In this document: positions 3,264 through 58,705 of the stretch, in pieces
Numbering within the stretch: the stretch's first letter is position 1
Layout of the letters: each line of letters starts with the position of its first letter
DNA from: Girardia tigrina
Taxonomy: Eukaryota
Assembly (NCBI GenBank): GCA_001938485.1
Contig: MQRK01245452.1
Coordinates: forward strand, 1 to 64,000
Reading direction: 5' to 3'
Length of the DNA stretch: 64,000 bases
The notes under the pieces: model-generated
Told to the model about the DNA's origin: nothing
The model's database searches: none
The model's input: the letters and a program-made list of their open reading frames with translations, nothing else
Made by a program: the position numbers and the translations under genes

Positions 3264-3829
3264 TATGTAGATATACCTTATGACTCGAAAGATTGAAGTA
3301 AAATTTAGAGAAAATTACAAGTCGCAGTAAATTTGAAAAAGAATTCAAGAAATTCTAAAATTGATTTTATTTTTTTCATTTTTTCTAAATTTTATTTCTT
3401 CTCTTTTTTGTGTTATATATATATATTTTATATAATGTCGACTATTATATAAAATTTATTTTATTCTTGAATTTATTATTTAATTTAAAAGAATTATAAT
3501 TATCAAAATTTTTCACAATATTTTAAATTCTTTATTATAGTCCATTTTCTTTTGATCTTTACAATTTAATATATGATTAAGAATAAAGCTGTTTCAACTC
3601 GATTAATTAATAATGTTAAGAATCTTCTGTTTTATCACTGCTTTGTTTTTTTCATTCTGTTTTGTCCTGTTCTGTTTTATCTTGTACAGTTTTATCACGA
3701 ACCTGTTTTATGATTGTGTTTTTCCTACTCAGTTTGAACATTGATTATTTGAATATTTTAAAACGTCGGTGTAAAATATAGACAAATTGGAAAAAAAGGA
3801 TTATAACAAATATATCCATAACAGCGATT

Positions 3830-4080
3830 TTATTGTCGTGAAATTGATTTCATGCATGAGAAACTTAAAAAAACAACCAGCATTGCTCAATCGGCACGAC
3901 CCCATTTTTTTGCACGATAACGCAAGACCCCATAAAGCTTCGATTACTGTTGACAAATTAAATTCTCTACAATATGAAATTTTACTACATCCTCCATATT
4001 CACCTGATATTTCATCGACCGATTACTACCTTTTTCGTTATTATGAATTATTTTGAAGAGAAAAAAAATACATTCAAAAA
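3830..4080 (+). mobile_element. mariner transposase C-terminal fragment
   Basis: IFLHDNARPH ... HPPYSPDISSTDYYLFR motifs. Confidence 0.85.
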
Positions 4081-12028: not shown

Positions 12029-15000
12029 AGTAAGCTAATAAAAAGAATGGAATAAATTTTTAAAGTACACAGTGTGGCAATTAAATTCCAAGACTGACCG
12101 AGTAAAAATGACACTGTTTCGTTTGTTCTTTATACAGAGTATTCTTTGCTGATTCAATACACTTTTTACTGCGATTCAATATTGATTCAAATGACTTCTT
12201 GTGGTCATTATTTTGTATTGCCTCTAAGGTACTAGTCGACCCTCTTGGATGGTCGCAATTTCATTAAAAACACCTTCTATCAAACTTCCTTTTAACATTT
12301 TTGAATGGCGACAAGTCAAATTTTACTAAATTTTTGGAATGATTCAAAACACAGATTTTATATTGTGGCAAAGATTGACGAACAACCAACGAGGAGTTCT
12401 ATGGTATTTTATCGTGTAACAGACACCAGTCGCCAAGATAGCAATATTATAATCGGATTTGAAGAATTCTTCAATCAAATGTTGTAAATTTTCCAAACAA
12501 AAAGAATGTGTAACTGTTTGACTATTTGTTTTGAAATCAGGATGAAAAACGTTTTTGCTATCAAAGAAAACAAATGATAATTGTCTTGATTTGGATGGAA
12601 CTTTTGGTGTTGTCTCAGCTTGATGAGAAGATTTTGAGTTCGTTCGGTACTTTGATGCTCTTTATCAGATCACACTGACAAACCCATGTCTTATTATTAG
12701 TAACAATTGATTTAGTGAATGTCAGGCGATAATTTAAAACTTGTACGATCTCTCTAGAAGGTCGGCTTGCCAATTTTTATCTATAGTTTTTGTGCTGAAC
12801 AGATTATTACAGGCCTCGGATTGTGTACCATCTTTCACCTATTGTCTACCACCCAAAAAATGGTTTTGGTCAATCAAAGTCTTTGGTAAAAAAAACACTC
12901 ACTTCCATAAACTTGTTGCATTATTTTGAAGGTTTATGTGTCAGTTTTTTCACATTTTGCATGAAACGTTGTTCTATGTATTCCAATGTTAATAAAAATT
13001 ATATTATTAAACGAAATACCATGTACTTTAGGTGCGCCTTATAGTCTGAAAACTACGGTAGTATTTTTTTATATTCCAGTAAAGTAACGAAGTATGTTAA
13101 TATAAAATGAAATTATTTTTTCGACATTGTCAAAAATAAAGAAAATTTATTTCAAATTTTGATAAAGAAATATAATTTGAGTAAACCTAAGTTATTTTAA
13201 TATAAAAAATAAAATTATACTTACCGACATCGTAGAAACTGAGAAAATTCGGAAAATAAAATGAAAAAGTGAATATCATATGTAAGAAAAACAAATGAAT
13301 ACAATTACTATAAAAGCTAAAATTATTATGATTGTTTTTGCATTTCAAGACTTTATAATCAATCAAAATAAACAATATATAATTACCTTCTTTGGCAACG
13401 AGATAGCCTGCCAAAGCGTCAGGAATTGATGTACCTGCAGCCAAAATCGTCAAACCCATTACTGTGTCCGGAATCCCAGCTGTATCGCCTAATGTCAAAT
13501 AACTACATTACCGACTGATTTATTTGTTTTCTTTAAAATAAGAATATTTATCACTTTGGCAAATCCTTCAAAAAATATTCAAACAGCAGTCTCAATCTAG
13601 ATTTAAAGATATATGTGGTATCATTATATGAAGTAGACATTTTGTTTGTTTTTCTGTTTTGTTATGCCTTATTATAAAGTATATTCAAATATAACCAAAT
13701 TTTCAATGAAGATTCCCTCATCAAGATAAAAGTTGAAAGGTACTTTTTTCAATGAAATGACGCAACTTTGAAGAAATGTCTGAGTTCTCCATTTGACCAA
13801 TCAAATTGCAGTATTTTCAGTACAACAGAATAGAGATATTTTAGGCACTCAAGGGATTTTAATTTTTTATATTAAAATTTTATTTATTCTTAAATATATC
13901 TTATATTCTGATCGAACAACAGATTACATTGTAAATCAAAAATAAACAAAACTTTTGAGAGTATCTGAAATAAAACATTGATTTATTAGGGTGAACCAAA
14001 AGTTTTGTCATATTTTTTATTAAAAATTTAAACATAATTTTACAACAAATAAAAAACATTTAAGTTTCAAAGTAAAGGCCATTTGAATCTATAGCTTGAA
14101 CCCATCTATTGGCAAGTTGTGCGATCCCGCTGCGGTACCAATCCTTGTTCTTAGAAGCGAAGAACTGGTGACACCCGTTTTCGACCTCGGCCACGAAGAA
14201 AGTGTGCCATAGAGCGGAAAAGGGGATAGTCGGATGGTGCAAGATCCAGACTATACGCTGGGTGTGGAAGAAGTTCAAAGGCGTTGAGATTTTGATTTTT
14301 CCTTTATTTGTTTGGCGGTGTGTGGTTTTGGATTGTCCTGTTGTAGAAGAACTCGCTTTCGATTGATCAAAGCGGGGTATTTCTCGCAAAGTGCGCATAT
14401 ATTTGATCAAGTTGGGCGCAGTAAAGGTCAGGGTCGATGTTACGACCATTTGGAACCAGCTCGAAGTGAATCACGCCTTCGAAATTCCACCAAACACACA
14501 AAAGTGCCTTCCTTGAGAAACAATCTCATTTTGCTACCGGTTTCGCCATTTGTACGGGGTCCAACCATTGATTTTGTTGGTCTGTGTGTTACTCTAACTC
14601 CGCGTGTGTAGGTCGAGGAATGATGTTGTCTTTCTTTCATTTGCCTCTGTACATGACCTTGATTGGTTTGAGTGTTCTCTGTACATAGGCATGTCTTGAG
14701 CGTGGTGTATGTTGTGTTTGCAATGGTTTTTAAGGATTTATTTCATTATTTTTTTTACAACCCATCGATAATCATTTATGTAAATCCTGAAAAGTTTTCG
14801 TGTAGCTAAGAACTAATGGAAGTGACGGAAAAGGTCAGTAACGATAATGGAATTTATCAAATATTTTTTTTGGTTGAGGTCAACAACATTCCAGTGGTCA
14901 ATGTACCTCATAATTATGTTTCAAGTCATATTAAATGTACACCAGATAAATTAAAACTGAATATAATGAACTCCATCAAAAGTATTTCTAGTTCATGGCA

Positions 15001-18000
15001 AGAGATGCTACCTTCGTGTAGAAATAACACCAAGAAGTCAAAGATACTTCAAATCTATGTCAAGATATAGTAAACAGTGCCATATTCTTTAACTTAAAAG
15101 ATATGGAAACCACTGACATCAATGAAAAAAATTTGGAGAAAAGGTTCTAACAGATATTCAAGAGAAAAAAATAACAGCAACAAGGATTAGTGAATGCTTG
15201 AGTCTAATTGGCGCTGTAAATGACATTTTTAGAGAAGTCGATCACGCTACTGAAAGGAGTTCAAAATTTGCCAACGTAAGTTCTTACAATAAAATTCATT
15301 ACAAAAAACAAATCAGTCCAGCCAAATCAAAAAGTTACTGAAACAGAACCAGGAGACAGAAATTCTGAATTTATCATCTGATTCTGAATAATAAATTACT
15401 TTTGTACAAATTAAATTTTAATTCAATAGTAATGATTGATTAGAATTTAAAAAGTTAGAATAATTACTTACCGTTGGTTTTGATCTGCTTCATAGTCATA
15501 TGCTTTCAGTGATCTTAATAAATTTTTGTAGAGGTTATTTTTATTCTTATTTTCGGTTGTTGGTTTAATAGATTACTCATTTTTTATTGGTAAGAATAGT
15601 TATTCGTGGACGTACGCGAATAATTATTTTTACAGTCTGGATTACTGAAGTAAACCCACTTTTCATTGCAAGTTACAATTCGACGGATGAAAAGGTCATC
15701 GCATGGATTTTCAAACAATTTTTGACAAGTTTTGAAACGCTTTTCTGCTTGAATTTGTGTCAATTCATGAGGCACTTCTCGACAACGTCTATTGACATTG
15801 CCAAGAGCGTGAAGGTATCGTACAATGGATGTTTGAGGAATATCGAGTTCGGCCGACAATCTGCGAGTACTTATTGAAGGATTTGTCTCGACGGCTTCAC
15901 GAATTGCTCCGGAATCTACGGTCGGCCTGAACGTGCATTGTCTCCGAGGTCAATGTCGCCTTCGTTGAACCTTTTGAACCAATTTTGTGCAGTACGATAT
16001 GAGACCACATTATCGCCTTCAACTTGGCAAATATTTTTTGTTGCTGCAGTTGCGTTTAAGCCCTGTTTCCAGTAATGTCGTAAAAGAACACGAATTTCAA
16101 AATTTTCCATGATTTTTGTAAAAAACCATAAAAATTATATTAACGACTAATTAGAAGTTTTAATATCTATTGTGATAGAGCAGTTCAAGAGCTTTAAAAA
16201 TATATAACACATATATGTAAAATATCTTTATTTGATAATAAGAAACAATTGAACAAAAAGACGTATAAAATACGAAAAGACTTTTGGTTCACCCTAATAA
16301 TTATCATATTCAAAAATAAATTGAAAAATAAATTTCATATTTACTCTTCATTCAGATAGAACTAATAATACTTCGTATCAAAAAGCTTTGTAATAAAAGA
16401 TTTTGGGTCTCAATCGCACAAAGAAATATAAAGTACAAACTATTTGGCTAAATTACATGATTAGACGAATCATACGAAGCTTTAGTAAAACTTATAGACT
16501 TACAATCTCTCGGAAAGTGTAACTATTTTATTGAACAACGCCGGGGGCTGCCTTGTGACTATTTTGAGTTATTACATTCTTTATCCAAATTAAGACAATG
16601 TGAAATGCTTACTATTTAGAAAATAATGATTATTTCAATTTTTCTTAATATTTTATTTAATTTGATCAGTTTGAGATTCATGAAAAGAAAATTATATAAA
16701 AATCACAATTTATCTGATAATCAGAGATGAATATATATTAAAATATATACTTGAAAAATAATTTTTGTTGGAACTTTTTTTTAAGAAATTGATTATTGTA
16801 AATGTTTTGGAATTTCTTTTTCATTATCAAATGGGAAATTAATTCTTATATGATATCGACCCGATATTCCACCCTAACGTAACCATAAGCATAACCCATA
16901 TAAAAAATAGTAAATAATAGTGTAATAAATTATATGGTGATAAAAATGAAATTTCACATATGTAAATCTGGTCATGTGAAATATACTCTCCATAAGTTTC
17001 ACAAGTGTCACCTTTCAACATGTAATTTTATCACAGTATCAAATTATTTTTTCAGTATTTAAGTAAAAACATATGAGTCTTAGCATTCATCCACCTTCAG
17101 GGGTGGTGTGACAAATCTTCTACAAACATTTAGGAAGATATTTCAGTTACTACTGTTAAATATTAAGCTACAAAAACATAACTAATGTACTTGGAAATAA
17201 AAACAAAAATAATAATATACCTGTTAGACATATCATCCACACCAAAAGATATGTAATAACTGAGATCCAAATAACACTTATGGTAAAGGTAAGAAAAAAT
17301 AAATTTCTCCAACACCCAGGTTTACGACAATCAGGAATTGTTAAAAAGCACAATATAGTAACTGGTAACATAGCTACCCAATATAGTCGCTTGAGAAAAC
17401 TGTCAGGAATTACGAAAATTGAAGGTGATTCTCCATCTAAGAACAAATTAAACAACCTTATTCCAAGTCTCGTGTAAAAAACCAATGTTTGTCATATCTG
17501 AGTCCAATTTTACTACTGAACGTGCAGAATCAACATCTCCTGTTTCCATTGTTAATTCTTCATCAGTACTATCCATTAAATCAAGAGAATTAGGGGTTTT
17601 TTGTAGAATCAAAGGATTGGCTTCTTCATCATTTGAAACTTTAGAAATTGGTAATCGTTTTAAAATAAATGAGTGCACTTTCTCATTATTATACAACAAA
17701 ATTATGTAGAATACATATATAATGATCATAATAAATGCTTCGTACCTGAAATGATATTACAATTTGTCAGCAATACAAACTCAATTATTAATGAGGATAT
17801 AGTTAATTGTTAATTTTCACTGAGATAATCTAAGATTTTAAATAACAAGAGTTTTTAAAAACGTTTGTTATTGAAGCGTGGATCCAAAGAATATTTATCA
17901 TTTAATAATGTTGACAAAATTATATATTGGTAATATTTATAAATTGCAATTTTTAGAGTAAAATTTAAATATTTTAAAAGTTTTAATGGTCTAATATTTC

Positions 18001-20770: not shown

Positions 20771-23700
20771 TTACCACTTTATAGATCCATCATATAAAAC
20801 AAAAATCAGTGTAACAATCGAAATGCAATAGACGACACTATCCCGGAAAAGTGGCCACCATGTCAGATAAATTGCCTGAAATATTTAGATATTAATCGTA
20901 TATTAATTAAAAGATACATTGTAAAAAATTATAAAACAAAATTAAAGAAATTTAAATTTTAGCCTTATGAATATTGAATTGGACTTATACATCAAATTCT
21001 AGACAATTGTTGAAAGGAATGGGATGAACTAGACAAAACAGTCTGACAAAAACTATCCAACAATGAAGAACAACTGGGAGAATACTTTCAAGAATAATGA
21101 ATGATAATATCACAACTTACATAAGGTATTAGTTGAAAGAAAGCACTTTTGTAGGATAACGGCGGTTACTTTAAAGAATCCAAAATCGTGGAAAATATAT
21201 AAGAAATAATGTTTTATTTCTTTGTTTATACTTTCGATAATGTTTCTTTTGCAGAGAATATGTCTTGTAATTTTAAAAGTATGTCAAAACATCAAACGAT
21301 AATAAAAATTACTACTTATCAATTTAAAATGATGTATTGTAAATAATTAAATTGATTCCAAATAAATTAAATGAATATTGCTAAACAGGTCTAAACTAAC
21401 TGATCCCACAAAAATTCCACAAATTGCTACTATACAGAGAACATTAAAAACTGCTGATCCAACAATGGTACTGATTCCAACATCGTTAGCTGTAATAAAC
21501 ACCCCTAAAGATAGTGATAAATATTTTTTCTTCAAAACATTTTGTAACCTATAACTGAAGTGCATAACTCCGGAGCTGAACTTCCTGCCGCCATGAATGT
21601 AGCACCCGCTACGTCATGCTTAATATGAAGAACTAAAACAATAAAGGAAAATATACAAATAATTACAAATATTGTAATCACAATATAATAAATACTCCTA
21701 AATAAAATACAAATGGATTTAAAATGAATTGTAAATTTGAAGAAAAAGTTGTGTTTGAAAATATTTTTTTCTCCCTCTCATAAAAATGATTTCACATTGA
21801 AATATTTTTTCAAATCTCTTAAAAATATTACTGAGAGTTTATAAAAGTTATATTTTTGCAATTTAATACCAATAAAGTCTCGGCAATTGAGGAAGTATTG
21901 ACAATTTACTTGAATGAACAAAAATAATATATGATTTAGCAGAATTAAAAAGTGATATTTGAAGATTGTTGGTATAAAATTGCTTGAGTAGAGCCTCCAA
22001 AGTTACCTACTTTGTCGCACCAAAAGTGTTAAATTTTTTTAGGAAATATTTAAAAAACTTTTGAAATAATAATTGAATTCCAAGTATAATTTTAAAATTT
22101 AAAAAAAACAAATCAAGAACTAAATAAAATTATGGTAGTAATGAAAAAATTTCGTAAATTTAATTAAAGAAAATGAAATTATTTAATCGTCGAAAATAAA
22201 AAAAATTAAATGGATTATTAAAAAAAGTTAAATGGATTACAAATCTATATAAATTTATTTTTCAAATTTACAATAAAGTTTTTATAAATACCCCATAATA
22301 GATATTATTTAAACAAATTGTGAGGAATATTTTAAATTGTTTGAATGTGTAAATGTATTGAGGATGTATTTAAGTATGTTGAATTTAGAATAGTGTTCTC
22401 CAACCCAGATGGAAATTGGTTTTTTTTATTAAATTTAAAGGATTGACTATTCGAACATAATTAAAATAATTATTTGATAAGTCTATATTTTTAATTTCAC
22501 AATTAAAATTAGGTTTAATAATTTTTAGTAAAATTTAAATTAAATGAATTTTTAATAATTTGATGACATTTTTTATTATTTTGGGATTTATTGAGAAATA
22601 GTAAAAATTATTATTTTTTAATTAATATTTTTAGAGGTTAAATATTTTAAAAATAACTTAGAAAATTTGTTCGAATAATCATGATTAAAAGCAGAAATAA
22701 GAAAACCAATTAGAACGATGGCAAATGATGAAAGGCCTTCTGAGAGTTGTAATGACTCTAAACGTAATTGCAATAAAAATTCAAATGAGACTTGTTTAAA
22801 TGTTCTTAATACAAATAATTATCCATATTTTTTCATGTGAAATATTTCATTAATTAAATAAATATAAAATGTAAAACTCCCACCAGAAGTATTTAATGAC
22901 AGAACATTCTACTTTCATAGTTCTATTGTCTATAGTCAATTCCACGTCACTAATCCCCACACAGTTATCATCGCCATTTGCCAAAACAATTCGTTGCCCA
23001 TACGATCGTAAGGAGCTTCCCTTGATCAACCTATTCAAGACAACAGTTTTTGAGCAACCCGAATCTATCAACGGTGTAACCGACTTGTTGTTAACAATGA
23101 CAGTCATGGTTCGCAGCGCCGGAAATGTCAAAGGGCGAGAGCCGGTCGCCTACAAACTTCTCTGTCCGTTTCCCGACTTGCAATATTTTGCTATGTGTCA
23201 AAGTTGCTTACATTTATACCAAATTATTTGTCCATTAGATTGCCGCAGAGAATTTTCATAACGGTTTACCTTTGTTTGTACCGGATTTACATTATGTGTC
23301 ATACGGTGTTTTGTAAAGGAACTCCATCTAACACTGTTGACCTCACCTCGTTCTTTAAAAACGATGTTGCCCTGACTACCGTTTTCTACCGCTGACATTG
23401 AAATTTGTGGTACACATTTTTTAATACCTAAATACCTGCGACTATGTTCAAACATTTCTGTTAAATCTTAATCACTTGCCTGCTCTAAATTCAATTGCAA
23501 CTCAAACGGCAATCCAGTCAAAAAACTGCCTTGGTCAGATCGTTGATTTTTGATGCCTGCATCTTTACTTGGGAAACGTAATCGTCAATAATCAGTCCTA
23601 CATAATATTTCAAATTAAGTTGGCTGTTCGCAGATCGTCTGGTTAATCCGAATGAATTTTCCAAGATTTGCAGTACATCTCTACAGTTGCTTTGTTTCTT

Positions 23701-26646: not shown

Positions 26647-26943
26647 TTTTTTTTGAAAAAAATTTAAAAATAAATTCCGTTCAAGAGACCCTTTCACTTT
26701 GACCTCCACAGTTTATAACACTTAATTTAAATAAAATAACGTTAATTGATAACATCCTTCAAAAAAAATTAATTTAAAACAACCTTTACAAAATTTTCAT
26801 ATAATTTTTGATCATTTACGAAAATCATGTCCGATTAAAATAATTTCAAATAATAAATTTCACACAAAGAAAATTAAACAAAGTTTACTGATTTGTTTAA
26901 ATAATTCAAATGATTGTGTAAATTAGAAAGTGAAAAAGAAAAA
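26647..26943. promoter_or_regulatory. Putative bidirectional promoter and 5' UTRs shared by NCKX and UCK
   Basis: The divergent ATGs at 26646 (-) and 26944 (+) are separated by 297 bp with no recognisable TE. Confidence 0.6.
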
Positions 26944-29900
26944 ATGTCAACCGAAAAAACAATTCCAAAACCGTTTATAATCGGAATTTCGGGTGGAACG
27001 GCGTCGGGAAAAGTAAGCAAATCGTTGAAATTCAAATAATGTTTACAATTTCCGATCGTTATTAGTCGACATTGACAGCGAAAATTTCGCAAACATTAAT
27101 CGCCAGTTGTAACAGTAATATTTGCATAATTAGCGTTGATTCATTCTATAAAAATCTGAATGAATCCGAGAAACAATTGGCGATTGATGGGAAATATAAT
27201 TTCGATCATCCAGGTAGAATAGTATTCGTTTAATAACGAATGTGATAATAAAATCGATTTTCGATTGATTTAAATTAGACGCATTCGATTTTGTGGAGTT
27301 GAATAACGTTCTCGAAACGATTTTGCGACGAGAGAAAGCGGTAATCCACGATTACGATCACCAGACTTTCGAGAGGTTCGATTGTTTGAATGATGCGATT
27401 AACATCGGTTATTTTGGATTGAGAGAGATTTACGAGAAATTTTCTATTTTGTTTTTATACAAATGATTGAAAAAAAGATTTACAGACCCTTAATTATTAT
27501 AAATTATTTTTAATTAATTTATGATTTTTACCACGTTTTACTTAACTTGCTTTGGGTTCTGTCTGTCTTTCTGTTTGTTTGTGATGTTTCACTTTTCACA
27601 CGCTTTTTTAGACCACTTCCACTCATCCGATCGTTCTGAAATTTTTTTATNTAGGCTTCTTCTGCCTGACATTTTGAGATTTTAGCATCTCTGCATCTCA
27701 AAAATGCTCTAATAAATTCAAATTAATTAATTTTAATTTTATATGGACTAAATTGAAATATAAAATTTATAAATTATAAAATTAAATCTTGGTATACTAC
27801 TTATAATAATAAGTAGTATAATAATACTACTAAAAAANNNNNNNNNNNNNNNNNNNNNNNNNNNNNNNNNNNNNNNNNNNNNNNNNNACCTAACCAAAAA
27901 CGTGGGGCATAGAAATAATCGATTGTTACTAAAAAGCAGTAAAGAGGAAATAGCAGTTACTAATAGCAGTAATTCAGAAATCCGCCCCACGTTTTTGGGT
28001 TAGGTACAAAATTTCGCACATGTCTAGAAAAAAATTATTTTCCTCTTTTTAGTCCATATGAAAACGTGGTTTTTAAAACTTTTTTATTTATTATTATTAA
28101 ATAATTAATTTACGCTTTTTTATGAAAAATATTTGTCAATTTTATTTTTTAAAATTATTTTTAATTGTTAAATAATAATAATTAATTTAATTAATATTTA
28201 GTATTTTTTAGTAATTTTTTTGAACTTAATAATAAACTTAATTAAATTTTAATTAATAACTAATATTATTTTAATTTATCAGTTTTTAATTAATATAATA
28301 TTTTTTATTTATTTTATTAAGTAACAATAATTTATTAATATTTAATTAAATAATAATTATTTTATTATTAAATAGTATTTAATTTTTAATATATTTTTAT
28401 TTTCTAATTATTGATTGATATATTTATTACTTAATTATTATTCAATAATATTATTTGATAAGAATTTATTTTACTATTATTTAATTAATATAAATATTGA
28501 TTTATTTTATTATTATTTAATTATTATTTTAATTAATTTATTATTTTTTATTAGTATTTATTTAATTAATTATTTACTGTTTTTATGCCATTAATTGCAA
28601 AACGAATTAGAGACATTCTAAATAATTTTTTATTCATTTATGATTATTTTTTAATTAATAAATGCGGGTGCACTACCGTACGGGCACGAGCAAATATAAA
28701 AATGTGACAATATATAAAAAAATTATCGGCATTCCAGGAAAAATAATTTTAAAATTTTGAAAAATTTCTAAAAAAATGTTCTTTAAGTCACAAAATCTTA
28801 GAAATTATTCGACTTAATTTAGGAAATATTTGTATCGCGATTTCAGAATGAAATAAATGTTTAATAATTTGTTTCATATTTTTTTAGATATGCTTAATAT
28901 AATTTTTATATTTAAAATTGAATATTTTTTTTTGGATTTTCCGCTTTTTAAAATTATTTTAGTTATTTTTTTTTTGAAAAAATTTAAATAAATTTTTCAA
29001 AAATTTAAAATTATTTTTCATGTAATGCCGACAAATGCTTCTTAATAAGAAATTATTTGTCGTTATTATTTACATAATTAATTTTATTATTTAATAATTA
29101 ATTTATATTAATTTAATTTGTAATTAATATATTTAATTTATCATTAATATTAATTTGCGATTATTTATGAATTAATTTGTGATTATTTACGAATTAATTT
29201 GTGATTATTTATTAATTAATTTGTGATTATTTATTAATTAATTTGTGCATATTAATTAATTAATTTGTGAATATTTATTAATTAATTTGTAATTATTTAT
29301 TAATTAATTTGTGAATATTTATGAATTAATTTGTGATTATTTATTAATTAATTTGTGAATATTTATGAATTAATTTGTAATTATTTATTAATTAATTTGT
29401 AATTATTTATTAATTATTTTGTGATTTTTTATTAATTAATTTGTGATTATTTATTAATTAATTTACGATTATTTATTAATTATTTTGTGATTATTTATTA
29501 ATTAATTTGTGATTATTTATGAATTAATTTACGATTAATTAACTGCTCCCAAACTTATTCTATGAATTCCTGCAAATGATTCTTGTTATTATCAACGTGA
29601 AAAACGATATAGAAAAACTTGAATCTACTTCTATTGATTAAAAAAACCCAACGGGAAAATTGCGTATTAAAAATATATTTTTTCACAAGTTGAAAATCGT
29701 GATCTAGTACATCTGTCGTGATACTTCCGGTTCCATTCCATCATAACCGTGTTAAATCTATTGATCGATATTTGATAAATAATGGTAAAGATTGACGACA
29801 AATGAGCGCGAAATTCCGGCCGATGTGAGCGTGGTGCTGGTGGAGGGCATTCTGGCGTTCTATCAGTCAAACATTCGCGACAAATTTCACATCAAGGTTT

Positions 29901-32900
29901 TCGTGGACTGTGATGCGGACACCCGCCTCTCGAGACGAGGTATGATAATCATCGATCAATTGTCCATCTCTATTGTTTATGATTTTCGTTTATCATTATC
30001 ATAAGATTGATTATCAGTTGGTAAATTTTTGAGATTCAGGAATTATTTTTGGATCAATAAATTTTGTCGATTCTCTTCTCATTCGGTGAGATTATTTTGA
30101 TTAATGTCGATTTTATTGAATATTAAATGATTGGGACAAAACAATATCGATTATTTTAAATTATTTGGTAATCAATAAAAAACGGCTACATTGAAAGTTG
30201 TTTGGATTTTTTTTTGTTTTCACAGGATTTTTTAACGTTTGATTGGTGAATAATTTTGATGCAAATAAATAAATTTTTATGGATTTTTATGTGATTTATT
30301 TCGATGAGTTTGTGATAAGCATGAATAATTGATCTTCACTGAGTGTGCAGTATTCTCAGTGACTCGAGACGTCGATCAGAACAAGCGAGACATCAGCACG
30401 ATTCTGAACAATTATTTCCAATTCGTCAAACCGGCTTTTGAGGAGTTCTGTTTGCCAGTGAGTTATTTTGATTTCTTGCATTGAAATAATGGTAAAATCA
30501 ATAAATAACTAAGCAAAAATTGCATTAAAATTGATTAATTTAAAAAATAACTTTTGTTGCAGTAAGCGCGTCCCTTTTTGATACGAATTTTGGAGCGGAA
30601 ATTGAATGTTTTTACCGAACATTTTGTCAGTTTAGGAAAAAATCATAAATAAAATATACTTAGGCTGTCCCAAAAGTCCTCAGGTGGCCTTTAAAAATTT
30701 GGACTGAATATTATTTAGACTGTCATAAATACTGTGTTAAAATTTCAAAGCATAAAATTAAAAAAAGTAAAATTTTGTTTTATTAAAGTATTGAAATTTT
30801 AAAAGTGCAGCGAATTCAAATCAAGCGGTTGTTAACAATGGAACCATATAAATGTTGCCAACTCAAATTAAAAGAGGATTCTCTGCTTCAGAAATTCTTC
30901 AGCAACTTCAGCTGGCATGGGAAGACGCAAATCACCTAGCGCTGAAAACTATTCAACAATGGTTGACTGATTTTGAAAAAAGAAAAGCGGACGTCCTTCG
31001 ACGATTCATCAAGAAGTGGCAGGTCGTCATTAATAGACGATGAAAAGATTAAAGCAGTCAAAGAAGTGATTGATGAAGCTCCAAATGCATCTTTGTGTTA
31101 TATTGAAAATGAACTTTCTTTACTCAAAAATACAGTCCACAAAATTTTGCGTGAAAAACTTCATTACAAAAAAAGTTTGCTCTGTTTGGGTCCCTCACGA
31201 ACTTTATGCTGCTAATAAACAACAACGCATTAACACTGCAAAGCATATACGCCATGTAATTTCACAGATGGGTGATGAAGCATATTCCAACATAGCGATC
31301 GAGGATGAGACATGGGTCTTTTTCCAAGNNNNNNNNNNNNNNNAAGATCACAAAGTTTGGATTCCTTCTAATGCTGTTCCACCAAAAGTGATAAAGCCAT
31401 CGCCAATGACTGATAAAAAATCTCTTGTTTTCGTAACCTTTACCTGCAACAAACGTTTTAATGCAAAAGCACTGCCATATAGTACCAAGATTGCTTATGT
31501 GAACTTTGTTCATGATACGGTGAAAAATGGAGGAAACTTAGATCTAACAGCATCAAGCTAAAGGAACTTAAGTGGTGACATGATAATGCAAGACCTCATT
31601 CTAGCAAAGAAACACCTCTTTTGAAAGAAGAATAATTGAAAAAAATTATCAATCGCCCTATAGTCCAGATTTTAATCTGTGTGTCAGATTCTTGTTTTCA
31701 AAAATGAAGAAAAGTTTTAAAAATCATGTTTTCAAATCACATGAAGAAATTGAAGAAGCTTGTAAATTCTTTTTTAATTCTTTATCAACAGAAACATTAA
31801 AAAATCANNNNNNTAAACTTTTTAACTATTGTCAGTTGGTTATTGACAACAATGGTGAATATGTTGTTGCTTAAGAAATTTTTAAAATATTTTTTTTAAA
31901 TAAATTTTTAAATTCGCTGCATCTAATTTTTTTGTTAGTTAATAATATTATTTTTTTGGTAAGTTTCAAATTTTATGCTTTGAAATTTTAACACAGTATT
32001 TATGACAGTCTGAATAATTTAGTTAAATTTGGTAAAATATTAGTGTTTTTAAAGGCAATCTGAAGATTTTTGGAACAGCCTAAGTATAATTAATAAAATT
32101 AATATTTTAAATAATTTAAAAAAGTAATTAAATTAAATTAAAGTATAATATTTATATAATTAAAATAAGTATTTGAATTAATAATTTGTACGAATCGTTC
32201 TTTTTTTTATTAATTTCAATTTGGTGCTTCAAAATTACTATAATACAGTCAACACTATTATTTCACAAACTATGTAATTTCACAGACTAAGTGACAAAAC
32301 CAAAAAATCAGTGTTGAGATCACATTTTCCATATAATTTCACAATTTTATAATTTCACAGTCATAAAAAATATAATTCTTAAAAACTAATTTTTACTATT
32401 TAAAAAACCAGCATGTTGTATTTAAAATGATAAAATCCTGTTTTAAAATATGTTTTTATAATAATTAAATTCTGAAAAGTAAAGGAGATTATTTATTGTT
32501 AGTAATTTCCTTTTCAATTTAGGAAAACTAATAACCCAATATGAAAAATTTTAACAAAAATATTTTTGTCCCTAAATAGCCTCTCAAAAATTCAATTCGG
32601 GTATTATTGCAGCATTCAAAAGAAAATACAAAACATGTTTTATAAAATGTTTCTATGAGAATTAGAAGCTTAACAAAAATTCTACAAAGATAAACCTTCT
32701 TGAATCAATAAGATTTGGGGTAAAAGCTTGGGATGAGATAAGAAAAATTACAATAAAATTTGTTGGAAACCTACTGGGTTAATTTACGATTAAGAATCTT
32801 TTGACATGAACGAGGAAACTTTAAATCATCATGAAATGAATTCCATAATTTCCGGGTTGGATATTTCACAACCAGTGACATTTGAAGAACATATTTCAAT

Positions 32901-38481: not shown

Positions 38482-41048
38482 AGTAATATCTTATATAAAA
38501 AATTAACATAAATAATAAGTTATTTAACAATAAAAAAGACATACTTGTTCGCGCTTATTTTTGTAAATGTTTAACTTTTTAAACAAATCAATTGAGTTTC
38601 ATATAGAAAAATTTAAAAGTAATCCATACTCTGAATGTAGTTTGAAATCGCCACCAAATCACAATTCATCTTTTCGTTAAATTTTCTACATGTCTGGCGG
38701 CCATTTTAAAAGATCTCTGAGTCGCGCCTCGTCCATCTTGTCTGGTCTTCCGGAACGAGAAGGGTCATTGAGCACAAAAGTATCGTGTTTAAATCTGGCA
38801 AACCAATCTCAAGCAGTTCTGTCAGGTATAGAGCCGAATCCATATACCGCACTTCAATCCCTTTCTCTTGATTAAAAGCGAAAAGAAAGGTGTCGAAAAT
38901 GCCATTTTCTATTGACTTTATTTTCCATTTGATGGTTTCAGAAAAGAAAAAATTATTATAGACATAACGATTACGTTAATCTTATTATAGGGCATTTTAA
39001 TAGTATATAACACTTAGTCACACATCAAAAAGTTTTTGTAGAAATAATAGATTCATGTACCGAGGGAAACTTACGCAACAAGATAATATTTATAAGTATC
39101 TATTAGTTTCCAAAAATATGTAAAATAAACAAATGATACTGATGTTTAGTGTTAGATATATATATTCTTTCAATTATTTTGAAAGACTTTCTTACAGTAC
39201 CTGGTCCAACAAATCAGGAAAATCTTTTCGAGACCGTATTAAACTCTTATCTTAGTTCCTATAAAATATTAAATAGTGAGTTAAATTTGTGGTCATTGAA
39301 CTCTCGATTACAAAAGTTTTCTGTGTATTATGGATCCGAAATTTATCTTTCCTTTCTCTAATTTTCTATTTTTTTTTGTTTTTTTCTTAAATTAATTATA
39401 AAAATATAATTACTTATAAAAGTCCGTTGGTTTTCGATGGAGACTTGCATATTGCGGAGATTACATAGAGGAGCGACTAGTATTGATGCACAATGATCGG
39501 TTGTTGAAATTAATAATAATCAATTCAGAATGATCAATTAATTTTTAATCTTGAATAAGAATATAATTAGTAAATAATTATTATTTATCGAAAGCCCCAA
39601 ATATTAGTTATTTTTTCACACTCATTTTCTAATCGGTATTTTGATTAAACATTTTCAGAGGTTTCGTGTTTGCTTCCTCTTAAACAGAGCATTAAATATA
39701 ATGGAGCATCTTCTTATACTTATTATTTTTTTAACTTTCTATCGTTTTTCAAAATTCTTCTACTGAACATCCACTGTCAGTATTCAAGAAGAAATCCCTT
39801 TTTATTTTAAATGATAAATTATAGATATTTTTAAAATAATAGATAGCATTCTAAAAAATTAAACGTGATAATTAATGATAAGACTAAATTATAATTAATA
39901 ACACTAAATTAAAAATAATTTCCAAAGTTTATGAAATTGAAAAAATATTTTCGGAGTGTCAGTCGGTGTCGAGTTTCACGACTCCAACTTAATTCCCACT
40001 TTGGCACAGACTCTAACTTCCCCAATTATCCTTAAACTCCGATTTATCCCAATTATCCTTGACTACGATTCCGCAGCCCGGTAAATCAGTATCATGGTAA
40101 AATAGTGAATCTACATAAGAGTTGAAAGATGATGATCGAAATCAACGAGAGAAAGAAAACAGCTCCAAGCAGGGTTTCGATGGAGACTCACAGATCGTGG
40201 AGAGTACATAGAGGAGCGACTAGTGATGACGCACAATGATATGTTGTTGAAATTAATAATAATCAGTTAAAAAAAAAGAAATAAGACTAAAGCCTTTATT
40301 CAAAATCATCTGTTTCAGTGTTATTTATAATTGTAATAATAACGTTTTAATAAATGACAAGTGTTAACATAGTTTGCTGTTATCACCCATTTAAATGTCG
40401 GTCATAATAACGTATTTAATATCGGTTGATCGATAAGAGATCGATATCTATCATAGTCAAGGATTTCATTAATGATAGAGGTGCTTTGATATTAAAAAAA
40501 TATTTTTCTATTGTATTCTAAATTGTTTATCACATTTCCTTCCTTGTTTAGGATATTAAATAAATTTAATTTCAAAGGAATAAGTTACTTTTTTTAATTA
40601 ATTATGACTTCTTTAGTTACAACTATAAATTTTAAAATTAAGAAAAAAATATTTTTACAAATTAATTTTCATTACTAAAATATTCATATATTTATTAAAG
40701 TTTTTAATCAATCAATTTATTATATTTTTTTTCAATACATTAAGTAAAAATAATTCTTGTTATTTCTTCTTATTTATTTTTTATCTTTCACGCTTTAATT
40801 TTTCTTTTTTCTTTATGTATAAACAGACGAAGAAATACGCTGATATAATATTACCGAGAGGTGCGGATAATGTGGTCGGTATTGATCTCATCATCCAGCA
40901 TATCCAGGATGTGCTTAGTCACGGTGAGGCAGTCATGTCTAGTCAGAAAAAAGTGTGTTCTGATGCTAATTTCGTTCATGAGGGTCATCATGTGTGGCGC
41001 ACAAGACAAGTGTCCGAATCTGGCGGACTCTCTACGCGTCCGCATTAA
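26944..41048 (+). CDS. UCK2: Uridine-cytidine kinase (UCK1/UCK2 type), 6 exons
   Basis: Exons: 26944-27012, 27066-27213, 27279-27375, 29791-29939, 30360-30457, 40827-41048. All introns are GT-AG and in phase. Motifs: [78 protein letters not shown], and a C-terminus RQVSES..RPH like vertebrate UCK1/2. The symbol denotes the family, not proven orthology. Confidence 0.93.
27526..28075 (+). mobile_element. DINE-1/HINE-like element in UCK intron 3 (contains a 50-N gap)
   Basis: TTTTACCACGTTTT ... AAAACGTGGTTTT ends and a CTGT-type repeat. The 3' module is nearly identical to 5944-6105. Confidence 0.7.
28726..29031. mobile_element. MITE-like element with inverted repeats of about 42 bp
   Basis: TCGGCATTCCAGGAAAAATAATTTTAAAATTTTGAAAAATTT versus AAATTTTTCAAAAATTTAAAATTATTTTTCATGTAATGCCGA. 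Confidence 0.55.
29140..29540. repeat. 22-bp minisatellite, about 18 copies (TTAATTTGTGATTATTTATTAA)
   Basis: GTGATT recurs at 29179, 29201, 29223 and onward with a 22-bp period. Confidence 0.9.
30659..32084 (+). mobile_element. Full-span mariner-like element with long (about 100 bp) TIRs and a frameshifted transposase
   Basis: TA-CTTAGGCTGTCCCAAAA ... TTTTGGAACAGCCTAAG-TA. Motifs [25 protein letters not shown] and YSPDFNLC. Confidence 0.9.
32246..33351 (+). mobile_element. Internally deleted pogo/Tigger element
   Basis: TA-CAGTCAACACTATTATTTCAC ... GTGAAATTATAGTGTTGACTG-TA, with internal [11 protein letters not shown] and AWDEI..CWK. Confidence 0.85.
33435..34488 (-). mobile_element. Tc1/IS630-like element, deleted
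   Basis: TA-CAGAGGTTCCCAGAA ... TTCTGGGAAACTCTG-TA. The minus strand gives [22 protein letters not shown]. Confidence 0.88.
34863..35207 (+). pseudogene. Divergent homeobox relic inside UCK intron 5
   Basis: 35034-35204 reads YRNRFT...[13 protein letters not shown]...[18 protein letters not shown]. The spacing from Y25 to Q44-V45-W48-F49-R53 is exact, and in-frame stops flank it. Confidence 0.55.
35900..36660 (-). mobile_element. Decayed Tigger/CENP-B-like transposase N-terminal half
   Basis: [16 protein letters not shown] (HTH), [26 protein letters not shown] and [12 protein letters not shown]. Confidence 0.8.
37684..37908. mobile_element. hAT-type MITE
   Basis: TIR TAGAGATAGG / CCTATCTCTA, CGGGT subterminal repeats, and 8-bp flanks ATAGAAAT / ATAAAGAT matching at 6 of 8 positions. 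Confidence 0.75.
38050..38300 (-). pseudogene. Degraded cyclin A/B-type cyclin-box fragment
   Basis: [12 protein letters not shown] at 38253-38288 (compare MRAILVDWLVEV), then FIASE and EDFYRMDNT in other frames. Confidence 0.5.
38650..39087 (-). mobile_element. mariner 5' fragment
   Basis: [26 protein letters not shown], with a TIR-like end near 39065-39087. Confidence 0.75.
39428..40268. repeat. Two diverged direct repeats of about 97 bp (39428-39526 and 40172-40268)
   Basis: Shared TTTCGATGGAGACT...TACATAGAGGAGCGACTAGT...GCACAATGAT...GTTGTTGAAATTAATAATAATCA. Confidence 0.85.
39950..40081. mobile_element. hAT-like MITE end with GACTCC-type repeats
   Basis: Degenerate ACTCC repeats ending ...TTCCGCAGCCCG, resembling a CAGGGCTGCGGAGTC-type terminus. 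Confidence 0.4.
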
Positions 41049-55657: not shown

Positions 55658-56852
55658 TTAGGGTTATGCATAAGTTCTCGACGTTTTTATTAGATATTCA
55701 TAGACGAGTTACAATATAATGATAAATATTTAATTATCAAAATACTCCCCATTTGAATCTATTACCTTTTGCCATTTTTCTGGCAAAAGATGAATACCTC
55801 TAGTATAAAACCCTTCATCCTTGGAATCGAGGAAATCGTCTATGCAATTTCTGACCTCATCGCTATTTTTGAAGTGTCTGCCAGCCAGGGTATGTTGTAA
55901 TGATCGGAAAAGGTATTAATCCGATGGTGCAAGGTCTGGTGAGTAAGCTGCGTGAGGGAGACCTTGCCAGCCCAACTGCAATATTGCTTCTTTCATTGCT
56001 GAAGCAACATGATGTCTTGCATTATCGTGGAGCAGTATGATTTGCTTACTACCCTGGCAGGTTAATGGTCTTTTTGCCTCGATTTCTTGTACTAAGCGCA
56101 ATAGTTGGTCACTATATCGTTGTGCAGTGACTGTTTGACCAGGTCTCAATAGTTCATAATAGAGAGGTCCCAAAAAATCCTACCAGATGCATAAAAGGAC
56201 TTTATGTCCATGAATATTGCGTTTCGGTGTTGATGTTGTTGTCTGACCTGGATCTACCCATGATTTTTTTGTGCTCTGGATTGTCGAAGTAAATCCACTT
56301 CTCATATCCGGTCACGATTCTCCATAGGAATGATTTCTTTTTGTGGCGGGCAACAAGCGATATGCATGTTGTTAAGTGCTGGTTTGTGTTGCGCTCGTAT
56401 AATTGATGTGGGACCTATTTTCCAACCTGGATCTTTCCCGTAGCTTTCAATCTTCTTACCACTGTTGATTGATTGCGTCTAAGCTTCTTGGTAAGAATTG
56501 TTGTTGATTGGGTGGCACCTTCGTTAAGAAGTGTCTGCAGGTCTTCATCGGTGTTTTCTTTTGGGCGACAACTTCTTGCTTTATCCTAGATATCTTTCTC
56601 ACCATTTCTGAACTTTATAAACCATTCGCGACACGTTGATGCACCAATAGTTCCTTCGTCATAAGCTTGGTCAATCCATTGTTTTGATTCGGTAGGGGAT
56701 TTACCTAAATCAAACATGAATAAAAGCAATGTCTGATGTGATTTTTATCTTCAGCCATTTTAGACGAATCAATTAAAATAAACGGTATTTTAATATAATT
56801 ATAATTTTAAGCACCATCTATATCAGCGTCGATAACTTATGCATAACCCTAA
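55658..56852 (-). mobile_element. Full-span defective mariner element
   Basis: TIRs TTAGGGTTATGCATAAGTT / AACTTATGCATAACCCTAA. Motifs [22 protein letters not shown] and [12 protein letters not shown]. Confidence 0.92.
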
Positions 56853-58082: not shown

Positions 58083-58705
58083 TTAGGTTGATGTAAAAGA
58101 AATGTCGTTTTTTAACTGTCAACTTTAAATAAACATAACTTTCTTTAGAATTAACTTTATTAGTCAAAATAAAAACATTACATTGAAAACACTGTTGCCA
58201 ACGGGTAACAAGTTTTTTATTCCAGTTTCATAAAATTCTGGAGTTCTGGAGGCGATGAAATCTTTCAAGGCTCTCTCAGCATCTCCTTGGTTTCTGAAGC
58301 ATTTTTCTTGAAGGAACTGGCTAAAATGTTTGAAAAGGTGATAGTATGTAGGAGAAAAATCTGGTGAGTACGGTGGATGAGGCAAGGTTTCATATCCCAG
58401 TTCGTTGAATTTTAGCATGGTCTTTAGTGCAACATGTATACGAGCTTTGTCATGCAGAAGAATTGACCCATTTCTATTGAGTAATTCCGGCCGTTTTTTT
58501 GTAGTTCTTGTTGCATTTTGTCAATTTCTAATACGTTTCCGACAATACATTTCCGCTCTAATAGTTTCGCCTTGTTATAGGAAGCTGTAACGGATTAAAC
58601 CGTGTGCGGACCTTTGGAGCCTCATTGAAATCCAATCACTAAGCTGAACGTCGCCGGTTGTCGTATAGGATCCATTTTCATCGCACATTACAATTCGATC
58701 CTTCA
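58083..58705 (-). mobile_element. mariner 3' half with TIR
   Basis: TA-TTAGGTTGATGTAAAAGAAATGTCG terminus. Motifs RIVMCDE, LLHDKAR and HPPYSPDFSPTYYHLF. Confidence 0.88.

Follow-up and report, generated by a model that had tools for sequence, protein, structure and literature searches.

We found that Girardia tigrina encodes a kinase of the UCK family in which two residues of the base-binding β-hairpin are exchanged relative to human UCK2, with phenylalanine in the His117 column and histidine in the Phe114 column. We put at roughly one half (0.5) the probability that the product is an expressed, catalytically competent UCK1/2 orthologue that, as predicted here, carries out the ATP-dependent conversion of cytidine to CMP, with an efficiency for uridine that is lower by a factor of at least ten. 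Both the enzyme class and its key residue are known from earlier work, and the gene is an ordinary housekeeping orthologue; variation of the histidine itself would not surprise a specialist given the alignment.

The gene lies in a 64-kb stretch of genomic DNA that was analysed as a whole (hereafter the window), on the forward strand (+) between 26944 and 41048. Joining and translation of open reading frames give six exons and an intact 260-residue product, with a joined frame of 783 nt, no internal stops and GT-AG borders at all five introns. Exon 1 (26944–27012, +) runs from the ATG to Walker A Lys23, and its joint to exon 2 (27012 to 27066) is present in spliced contigs from all four sequencing runs compared (X1, X5, X6 and X9); the transcript begins at or before 26900. 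Exon 2 (27066–27213, +), assigned by translation and residue alignment with joints in spliced contigs, encodes the catalytic Asp48 (27138–27140; human D62), Tyr51 (Y65) and Phe69-Asp70 (F83, D84), together with Val47 (27135–27137) in place of the conserved Gln61. Exon 3 (27279–27375, +; 97 nt) encodes the base-binding hairpin YDHQTFER; AG precedes 27279, GT follows 27375 and these coordinates are exact, both ends being backed by X1, X5 and X9. The hairpin codons, read by translation and alignment with human UCK2 (1xrj), run Tyr98 (27353–27355; the retained human Tyr112), Asp99, His100 (CAC, 27359–27361), Gln101, Thr102, Phe103 (TTC, 27368–27370; the column of human His117 and of Thermus thermophilus Tyr93) and Glu104, followed by Arg105, whose codon is split between 27374–27375 and 29791.

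The remaining exons complete the catalytic domain. Exon 4 (29791–29939, +), assigned by homology with its first bases in spliced contigs, contains Glu123 (E135), Arg154 (R166) and Cys145 (29909–29911), which replaces Thr157. Exon 5 (30360–30457, +) encodes the lid, which aligns with 1xrj as R157-D-V-D-Q-N162-K163-R164, such that Arg157 corresponds to R169, Asn162 (30380–30382) to R174, Lys163 to G175 and Arg164 to R176; Asn172 (30410–30412), encoded by the same exon, corresponds to Q184. Exon 6 (40827–41048, +) ends in RPH, a terminus also found in many animal UCKs, and then TAA. The joints of exons 4–5 and 5–6 were inferred from GT-AG borders, frame and homology. Exons 2 and 3 together span 245 nt, which fits the human 257 nt (a figure from the available portion of PMC11781035) less a four-residue deletion in exon 2. 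A tblastn search of the 64-kb window with seven UCK queries returned this gene and one match at E 0.70, and no second UCK.

The surroundings of the gene were also inspected. A sodium/calcium exchanger gene, presumably of the SLC24/NCKX type, begins at 26646–26529 (-), with downstream exons extending to about 9064 (-) and matches to Pfam accession PF01699. It stands head-to-head with the UCK gene, the two start codons being 298 bases apart, and the pair possibly share a promoter. A CDK-like protein kinase frame without introns, about 359 aa long, lies at 1391–2488 (+; PF00069, E 2.3e-63), and its exact sequence is absent from the protein collection. Broken mariner/Tc1-like transposase fragments were recognized by eye in UCK intron 5 (about 30850–31880, +), with similar pieces near 3775–4056, 12344–12661, 15584–16134, 55916–56414 and 58164–58520; only 15587–15949 gives a Pfam match, a weak one. 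Intron 3 holds AT-rich tandem arrays (28185–28584 and 29063–29541) that include a 22-bp unit repeated about 18 times with 90% match. A dispersed short repeat at 27524–27553 has two further copies in the window, with four mismatches, and matches many unrelated contigs, and a retrotransposon-type aspartyl protease fragment at 22850–23149 (-) falls under the Pfam cut-off.

We considered whether the phenylalanine could be an artefact of a wrong splice donor, a misalignment or a base-call error, with the real mRNA encoding His. Spliced contigs from X1, X5, X6 and X9, which come from four studies and are four of the twelve runs listed, were compared with 26880–27600; their spliced state was deduced from the joints, as no listed run is recorded as RNA (the RNA label was guessed, and X9 is unlabelled). 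The joint between exons 2 and 3 is present in X1, X5 and X9, and X6 carries a 14-base loose end that matches the start of exon 3. Contigs X1, X5 and X9 break off at 27375 and continue into the start of exon 4; the loose end past this point is identical to the first 30 bases of exon 4 in X1 and almost identical in the other two. The spliced contigs rule out use of an earlier GT donor within exon 3. The X1 contig (depth 81) has no other letters across 27277–27375, and TTC is therefore present in a spliced transcript, where a cDNA with His at this codon would have overturned the proposal. The length of X1, 836, fits a 44-base leader, the 783-base frame and nine further bases, and this run may derive from the source sample of the assembly. 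Contigs X5 and X9 carry two and four differences in exon 3, which on our reading of the comparison table apparently fall no more than about 30 bases from an end of the exon, and codon 103 was read in X1 alone. Seven differences in X5 and X9 were readable, of which six are synonymous and one changes Ala to Ser, as expected of a working gene.

The register of the hairpin is also fixed. Human UCK2 (1xrj, full-length numbering) reads YDFVSHSR with its last residue at 119, and His100 therefore corresponds to F114 and Phe103 to H117. The alignment is ungapped here, since the 26-residue spacing from P72 to Y98 matches that from P86 to Y112 in 212 of 219 aligned rows. In an unrelated genomic UCK of the Asn type (L002), an inferred intron interrupts the R119 codon at this same phase-2 position, and the position of intron 4 is common to all five genomic UCK loci checked, with introns inferred from GT and frame. 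The artefact explanation can draw on the runs of N in intron 3 of the genomic assembly and on the site codon not being readable in the X5 and X9 contigs. Against it stand the unambiguous X1 contig and its exon 4 joint, shared by X5 and X9, the lack of another exon with the motif on the + strand of 27214–29790, the register pinned by spacing and intron position, and an independent protein (P0098) with the same swap. An artefact is thus nearly excluded. The earlier note's reading of exon 3, with Phe in the His117 column and His in the Phe114 column, is confirmed by the 1xrj alignment, the ungapped register and X1, as is its lid reading RDVDQNKR, with Asn at the Arg174 position, by translation against 1xrj.

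Judged by sequence, the Girardia tigrina gene is an animal UCK1/2 orthologue and a member of the UCK family. Exons 2, 4, 5 and 6 each match uridine kinase models best (PF00485; udk TIGR00235/PRK05480), with single exons under the whole-protein cut-offs, and exon 4 matches UCK2 at E 3.6e-11. A search for homologues using exon 2 by itself gave no matches (seven candidates, none scored; weak evidence), and exon 3 alone matched nothing in the PDB. The protein consists of a stand-alone kinase domain, shares intron positions with animal UCK1/2 genes, stops after RPH and, over the core, is about 55–57% identical to its nearest relatives among the animal UCK1/2 rows. Walker A (G17–S24), the catalytic D48 and E123 are present, and the full set of retained equivalents comprises the P-loop, D62, Y65, F83, D84, Y112, E135, R166, R169, R176 and Y185. 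The catalytic, ribose and cytosine-reading residues are thereby common to the Girardia tigrina protein and human UCK2/UCK1 (1UEJ, 1XRJ, 2JEO; PF00485), whereas the comparison of other positions gives H117F, F114H, R174N, G175K, Q184N, Q61V and T157C. Where dual-specificity enzymes of the human UCK2 type have His or Gln at 117, this one has Phe103, and the substrate-site residues F114, R174 and Q184 are replaced by His100, Asn162 and Asn172. The description of the enzyme as otherwise intact holds for Walker A and the catalytic Asp and is too strong for the pocket, where Q184N and Q61V had been overlooked.

The breadth of these changes raises a different explanation, namely that the enzyme acts on another substrate, such as a riboside that is modified or is not a pyrimidine, or that it is a UCK whose catalysis is slow or partly lost and which has been retained for some other function. 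Four substrate-site changes occur at once (F114H, H117F, R174N and Q184N); the available part of PMC8217354 lists Q184 among the crucial residues, and R174 contacts CTP according to a table in PMC6274218 and is included, with F114 and R176, among the substrate-site residues in a supporting-figure legend of PMC13245873. Among 107 columns with conservation of 90% or more in the 174 other rows of our alignment, the protein departs at 20, and it sits on a long branch. However, many of the 20 departures are conservative (I/V/L/M), and the phosphoryl-transfer and ribose residues and R176 are all kept. Loss of R174 also occurs in 8 of 172 rows that are not aromatic at 117, and Q184 is present in 163 of 174 other rows and hence not invariant. 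The closest solved folds to a model of P0098, our structural stand-in, are UCKs, far above NRK1 (Z about 16–17). We regard a changed substrate or low activity as rather improbable.

Cytidine preference, the reading that we favor, rests on mutants of tested enzymes. Human UCK2 takes both nucleosides equally, while wild-type ttCK from T. thermophilus HB8 (3ASY, 3ASZ, 3W34, 3W8R), the characterised cytidine-only UCK, has Tyr93 at this position and no uridine activity (PMC5614712). Among ttCK mutants, kcat/KM for uridine (per M per s) is 2.6e4 for Y93H, 7.2e2 for Y93Q, 6.1e2 for Y93T, 41 for Y93N and 16 for Y93F (PMC5614712; Table 3 for Y93F). The Y93F mutant, which mimics the Girardia tigrina residue, has a cytidine value of 5.7e4 and hence a preference of about 3,600-fold (PMC5614712, Table 3). 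The earlier note gives this biochemistry accurately for Tyr93, Y93H and Y93F, and in part for Gln, since Y93Q restores far less uridine activity than Y93H (PMC5614712). In the human enzyme, H117Y gives 4.7e4 for cytidine against 9.6e2 for uridine, a preference of about 49-fold (PMC5614712, Table 3). The available portion of PMC9163393 describes bonds of Y112 and H117 to the base, with Tyr112 hydrogen-bonded to N4/O4, and of D84/R166 to the ribose. The residue has been proposed as a single predictor of specificity, with an effect size that its authors did not fully explain (PMC5614712).

On this basis, R176 and Y112 would still read cytosine, and cytidine would be bound and phosphorylated as in UCK2. 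Phe at 117 would be unable to donate a hydrogen bond to uracil O4, which would make uridine a poor substrate, and His at 114 would chiefly serve for packing within the four-residue loop of the hairpin. We predict weak feedback inhibition by UTP because neither uridine nor UMP nor UTP inhibits ttCK (PMC5614712). Uridine salvage would then be left to another enzyme, e.g. UCKL1 or UPRT; human UCKL1 phosphorylates uridine according to the available part of PMC9246348, and such a bypass therefore exists in at least one animal.

Several considerations weigh against cytidine preference. The mutants were measured in scaffolds that retain F114, R174 and Q184: ttCK (3w8r) shares the non-donor aromatic in the His117 column but is bacterial, has Tyr instead of Phe and keeps Phe114, Arg174 and Gln184, where Girardia tigrina has His, Asn and Asn. 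The Girardia tigrina protein thus has the ttCK-type aromatic without the remaining ttCK-type pocket (aromatic at 114, R174, Q184). In addition, the donor at 114 in 45 of 49 rows aromatic at 117 resembles a donor shifted by three positions. The earlier note's proposal that the enzyme may be cytidine-restricted accordingly survives as a likeliest preference and not as a restriction, given that human H117Y shows only the roughly 49-fold preference and that all three residues kept in the background of the ttCK mutants are altered here. Its alternative of a rewired base pocket deserves more weight.

To place the swap in context, we aligned the Girardia tigrina protein with 226 database proteins, comprising the best 120 of 2732 matches, 75 new proteins among the best 120 of 5160 and 31 that were picked; this is a ranked, fly-rich sample and no census. 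In two alignments (A1 and A2) exon 3 was wrongly placed by MAFFT, as was exon 6 in the first of them, and P0151–P0153 (the P0098 cluster), P0140 (unalignable hairpin) and gapped rows were dropped before counting. In this ranked sample, His occupies 117 in all 42 named vertebrate genera, while the 54 named invertebrate genera divide into 33 with Asn, 14 with His, three with Ser, two with Ala and one each with Cys and Tyr. The Drosophila hairpin, for example, reads YDYRTNSL. Phe at 117 was found in three of 223 rows (Girardia tigrina, P0098 and the protist Amoeboradix) and the His114/Phe117 pair in two (Girardia tigrina and P0098). The claim that such an enzyme would be unusual in animals is borne out for the exact swap and not for loss of the histidine, which is missing in 40 of the 54 named invertebrate genera. 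From these sequences, His loss appears ordinary in invertebrates and an aromatic at 117 a rotifer trait, with only the exact swap rare. None of 15 metagenome loci scanned came near the Girardia tigrina UCK (best segment 43–76%), and none of the 11 with the motif in frame is aromatic at 117.

The commonest residue in the sampled invertebrate genera is Asn (33 of 54), and the ttCK table would make these enzymes poor uridine kinases; the same is expected of the two corals with Ala and of Octopus with Cys. Applied strictly, a single-residue rule would make all 33 Asn-type genera cytidine-only too (Y93N, 41 per M per s), a further point against the cytidine-preference reading. We found no test of uridine activity for Asn-type invertebrate UCKs in the literature, and no work on a naturally occurring animal enzyme whose residue 117 is Phe, Tyr or Asn, most subscription papers being outside our coverage.

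Residue 117 covaries with other pocket positions. Arg174 is missing in 49 of 49 rows aromatic at 117, compared to 8 of 172 other rows, and 114 is His, Lys, Asn or Arg in 45 of the 49 versus none of 174 other rows, 168 of which have Phe or Tyr there. The counts are of sequences and not of events, as the aromatic-117 rows belong mostly to one clade and the pattern rests on one to three origins. The loss of Arg174 and the donor at 114 indicate a re-tuned pocket, to which the ttCK data are therefore not cleanly transferable. These patterns bring in a dual-specificity explanation, in which the aromatic and the donor have traded places, residue 114 contacts uracil O4 directly or via water, and both nucleosides are taken. 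The reciprocal 114/117 counts fit this arrangement, as do the joint changes at Q61, R174, G175 and Q184, the listing of F114 as a substrate-site residue (PMC13245873, legend) and a modelled hairpin in which 114 and 117 would form the two ends of one four-residue loop. It is weakened by the small number of origins, by four aromatic-117 rows that retain an aromatic at 114 and by the observation that Lys at position 93 abolishes ttCK activity (PMC5614712). We consider such a pocket a possibility, less probable than cytidine preference. A further consideration against it is geometric: F114 packs on the base and does not lie in its plane. Tentatively, the sequences may point to His114/Phe117, along with Lys/Asn114/Tyr117 in rotifers, as a second natural mode of uracil recognition with matched lid changes at R174, G175 and Q184.

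The rotifer-type UCKs provide one parallel. They comprise Brachionus plicatilis P0316, B. calyciflorus P0317 and 43 rows grouped by search rank and motif, a biased count of 45 because the A2 query contained P0125 and drew in the rotifer clade. All 45 have Tyr at 117 and lack R174, 43 are polar at 114, 44 have Cys at T157 and 35 have Leu at F83, and R119 is lost. Girardia tigrina and the rotifer-type enzymes have in common a hydrophobic residue in the Q61 column, Cys at T157, a changed G175 and the loss of Q184, but the rotifer-type proteins carry Tyr/Lys or Tyr/Asn for Phe/His and are 46–51% identical to the Girardia tigrina protein. All ten rotifer-type rows placed in the tree form one clade (support 100). 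In two of the rotifer-type rows both positions 114 and 117 are Tyr, which makes them doubly aromatic as in ttCK. Each codon of Tyr114/Tyr117 is one base change away from His114/Phe117, and given one origin the ancestor may thus have been ttCK-like, which would favor cytidine preference. The rotifer-type pocket (P0316, P0317, P0125, P0287–P0329, P0333) has Lys/Asn114, Tyr/Phe174 and Tyr184; a literature search found no biochemical study of these enzymes, and those of Brachionus, an animal kept in laboratories, are perhaps a better test case than the Girardia tigrina gene.

P0098, a Logan protein from a cluster of four, shares His114/Phe117, the loss of R174 (Leu), Leu at Q61 and the RPH end, but its identity to the Girardia tigrina protein is only about 52%, Q184 and T157 are unchanged, and Asn replaces R119. 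Its sister grouping with Girardia tigrina is weak (SH-aLRT 55–66). With the trait columns removed, a tree constrained to unite Girardia tigrina, P0098 and the rotifers in one clade is 4.6 lnL better (AU p 0.73), and with two further shared columns dropped it is 6.6 lnL worse (AU p 0.28), in both cases with long branches. A plant paralogue, the UKL3-type protein of Cajanus cajan (XP_029128558.1; P0110), separately pairs Tyr117 with Asn174 but keeps Phe114, which hints that the 117/174 pairing recurs across these sequences. P0110 and P0106 (Amoeboradix) have Phe/Tyr and Phe/Phe at 114/117, without Arg174, and their pockets are nearer to that of ttCK than is Girardia tigrina's.

P0098 also served as the stand-in for the Girardia tigrina protein in AlphaFold modelling. 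Its pLDDT was 39.8 from a single sequence and averaged 79.4 with 66 sequences, reaching 89–97 in ten-residue blocks from 61 to 230. The model superimposes on UCK2-cytidine (1uej) with Z 31.8 and an rmsd of 1.2 over 205 residues, compared to Z 26–29 for ttCK, and places the hairpin strands at 114–120 and 125–134, with His opening and Phe closing a four-residue loop.

The His114/Phe117 swap and the rotifer clade offer an inexpensive way of testing the single-residue rule directly. If cytidine is preferred, the ttCK rule would reach natural animal enzymes, and the UCK1/2 orthologues of rotifers (Tyr) and of many insects, crustaceans and molluscs (Asn) would be predicted poor uridine kinases; these animals would rely on UCKL1 or UPRT to salvage uridine and to take up labels and drugs that are uridine analogues. 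If uridine is taken, the published rule that 117 alone predicts UCK specificity would fail, and the swapped pocket would be a ready scaffold for engineering UCK specificity.
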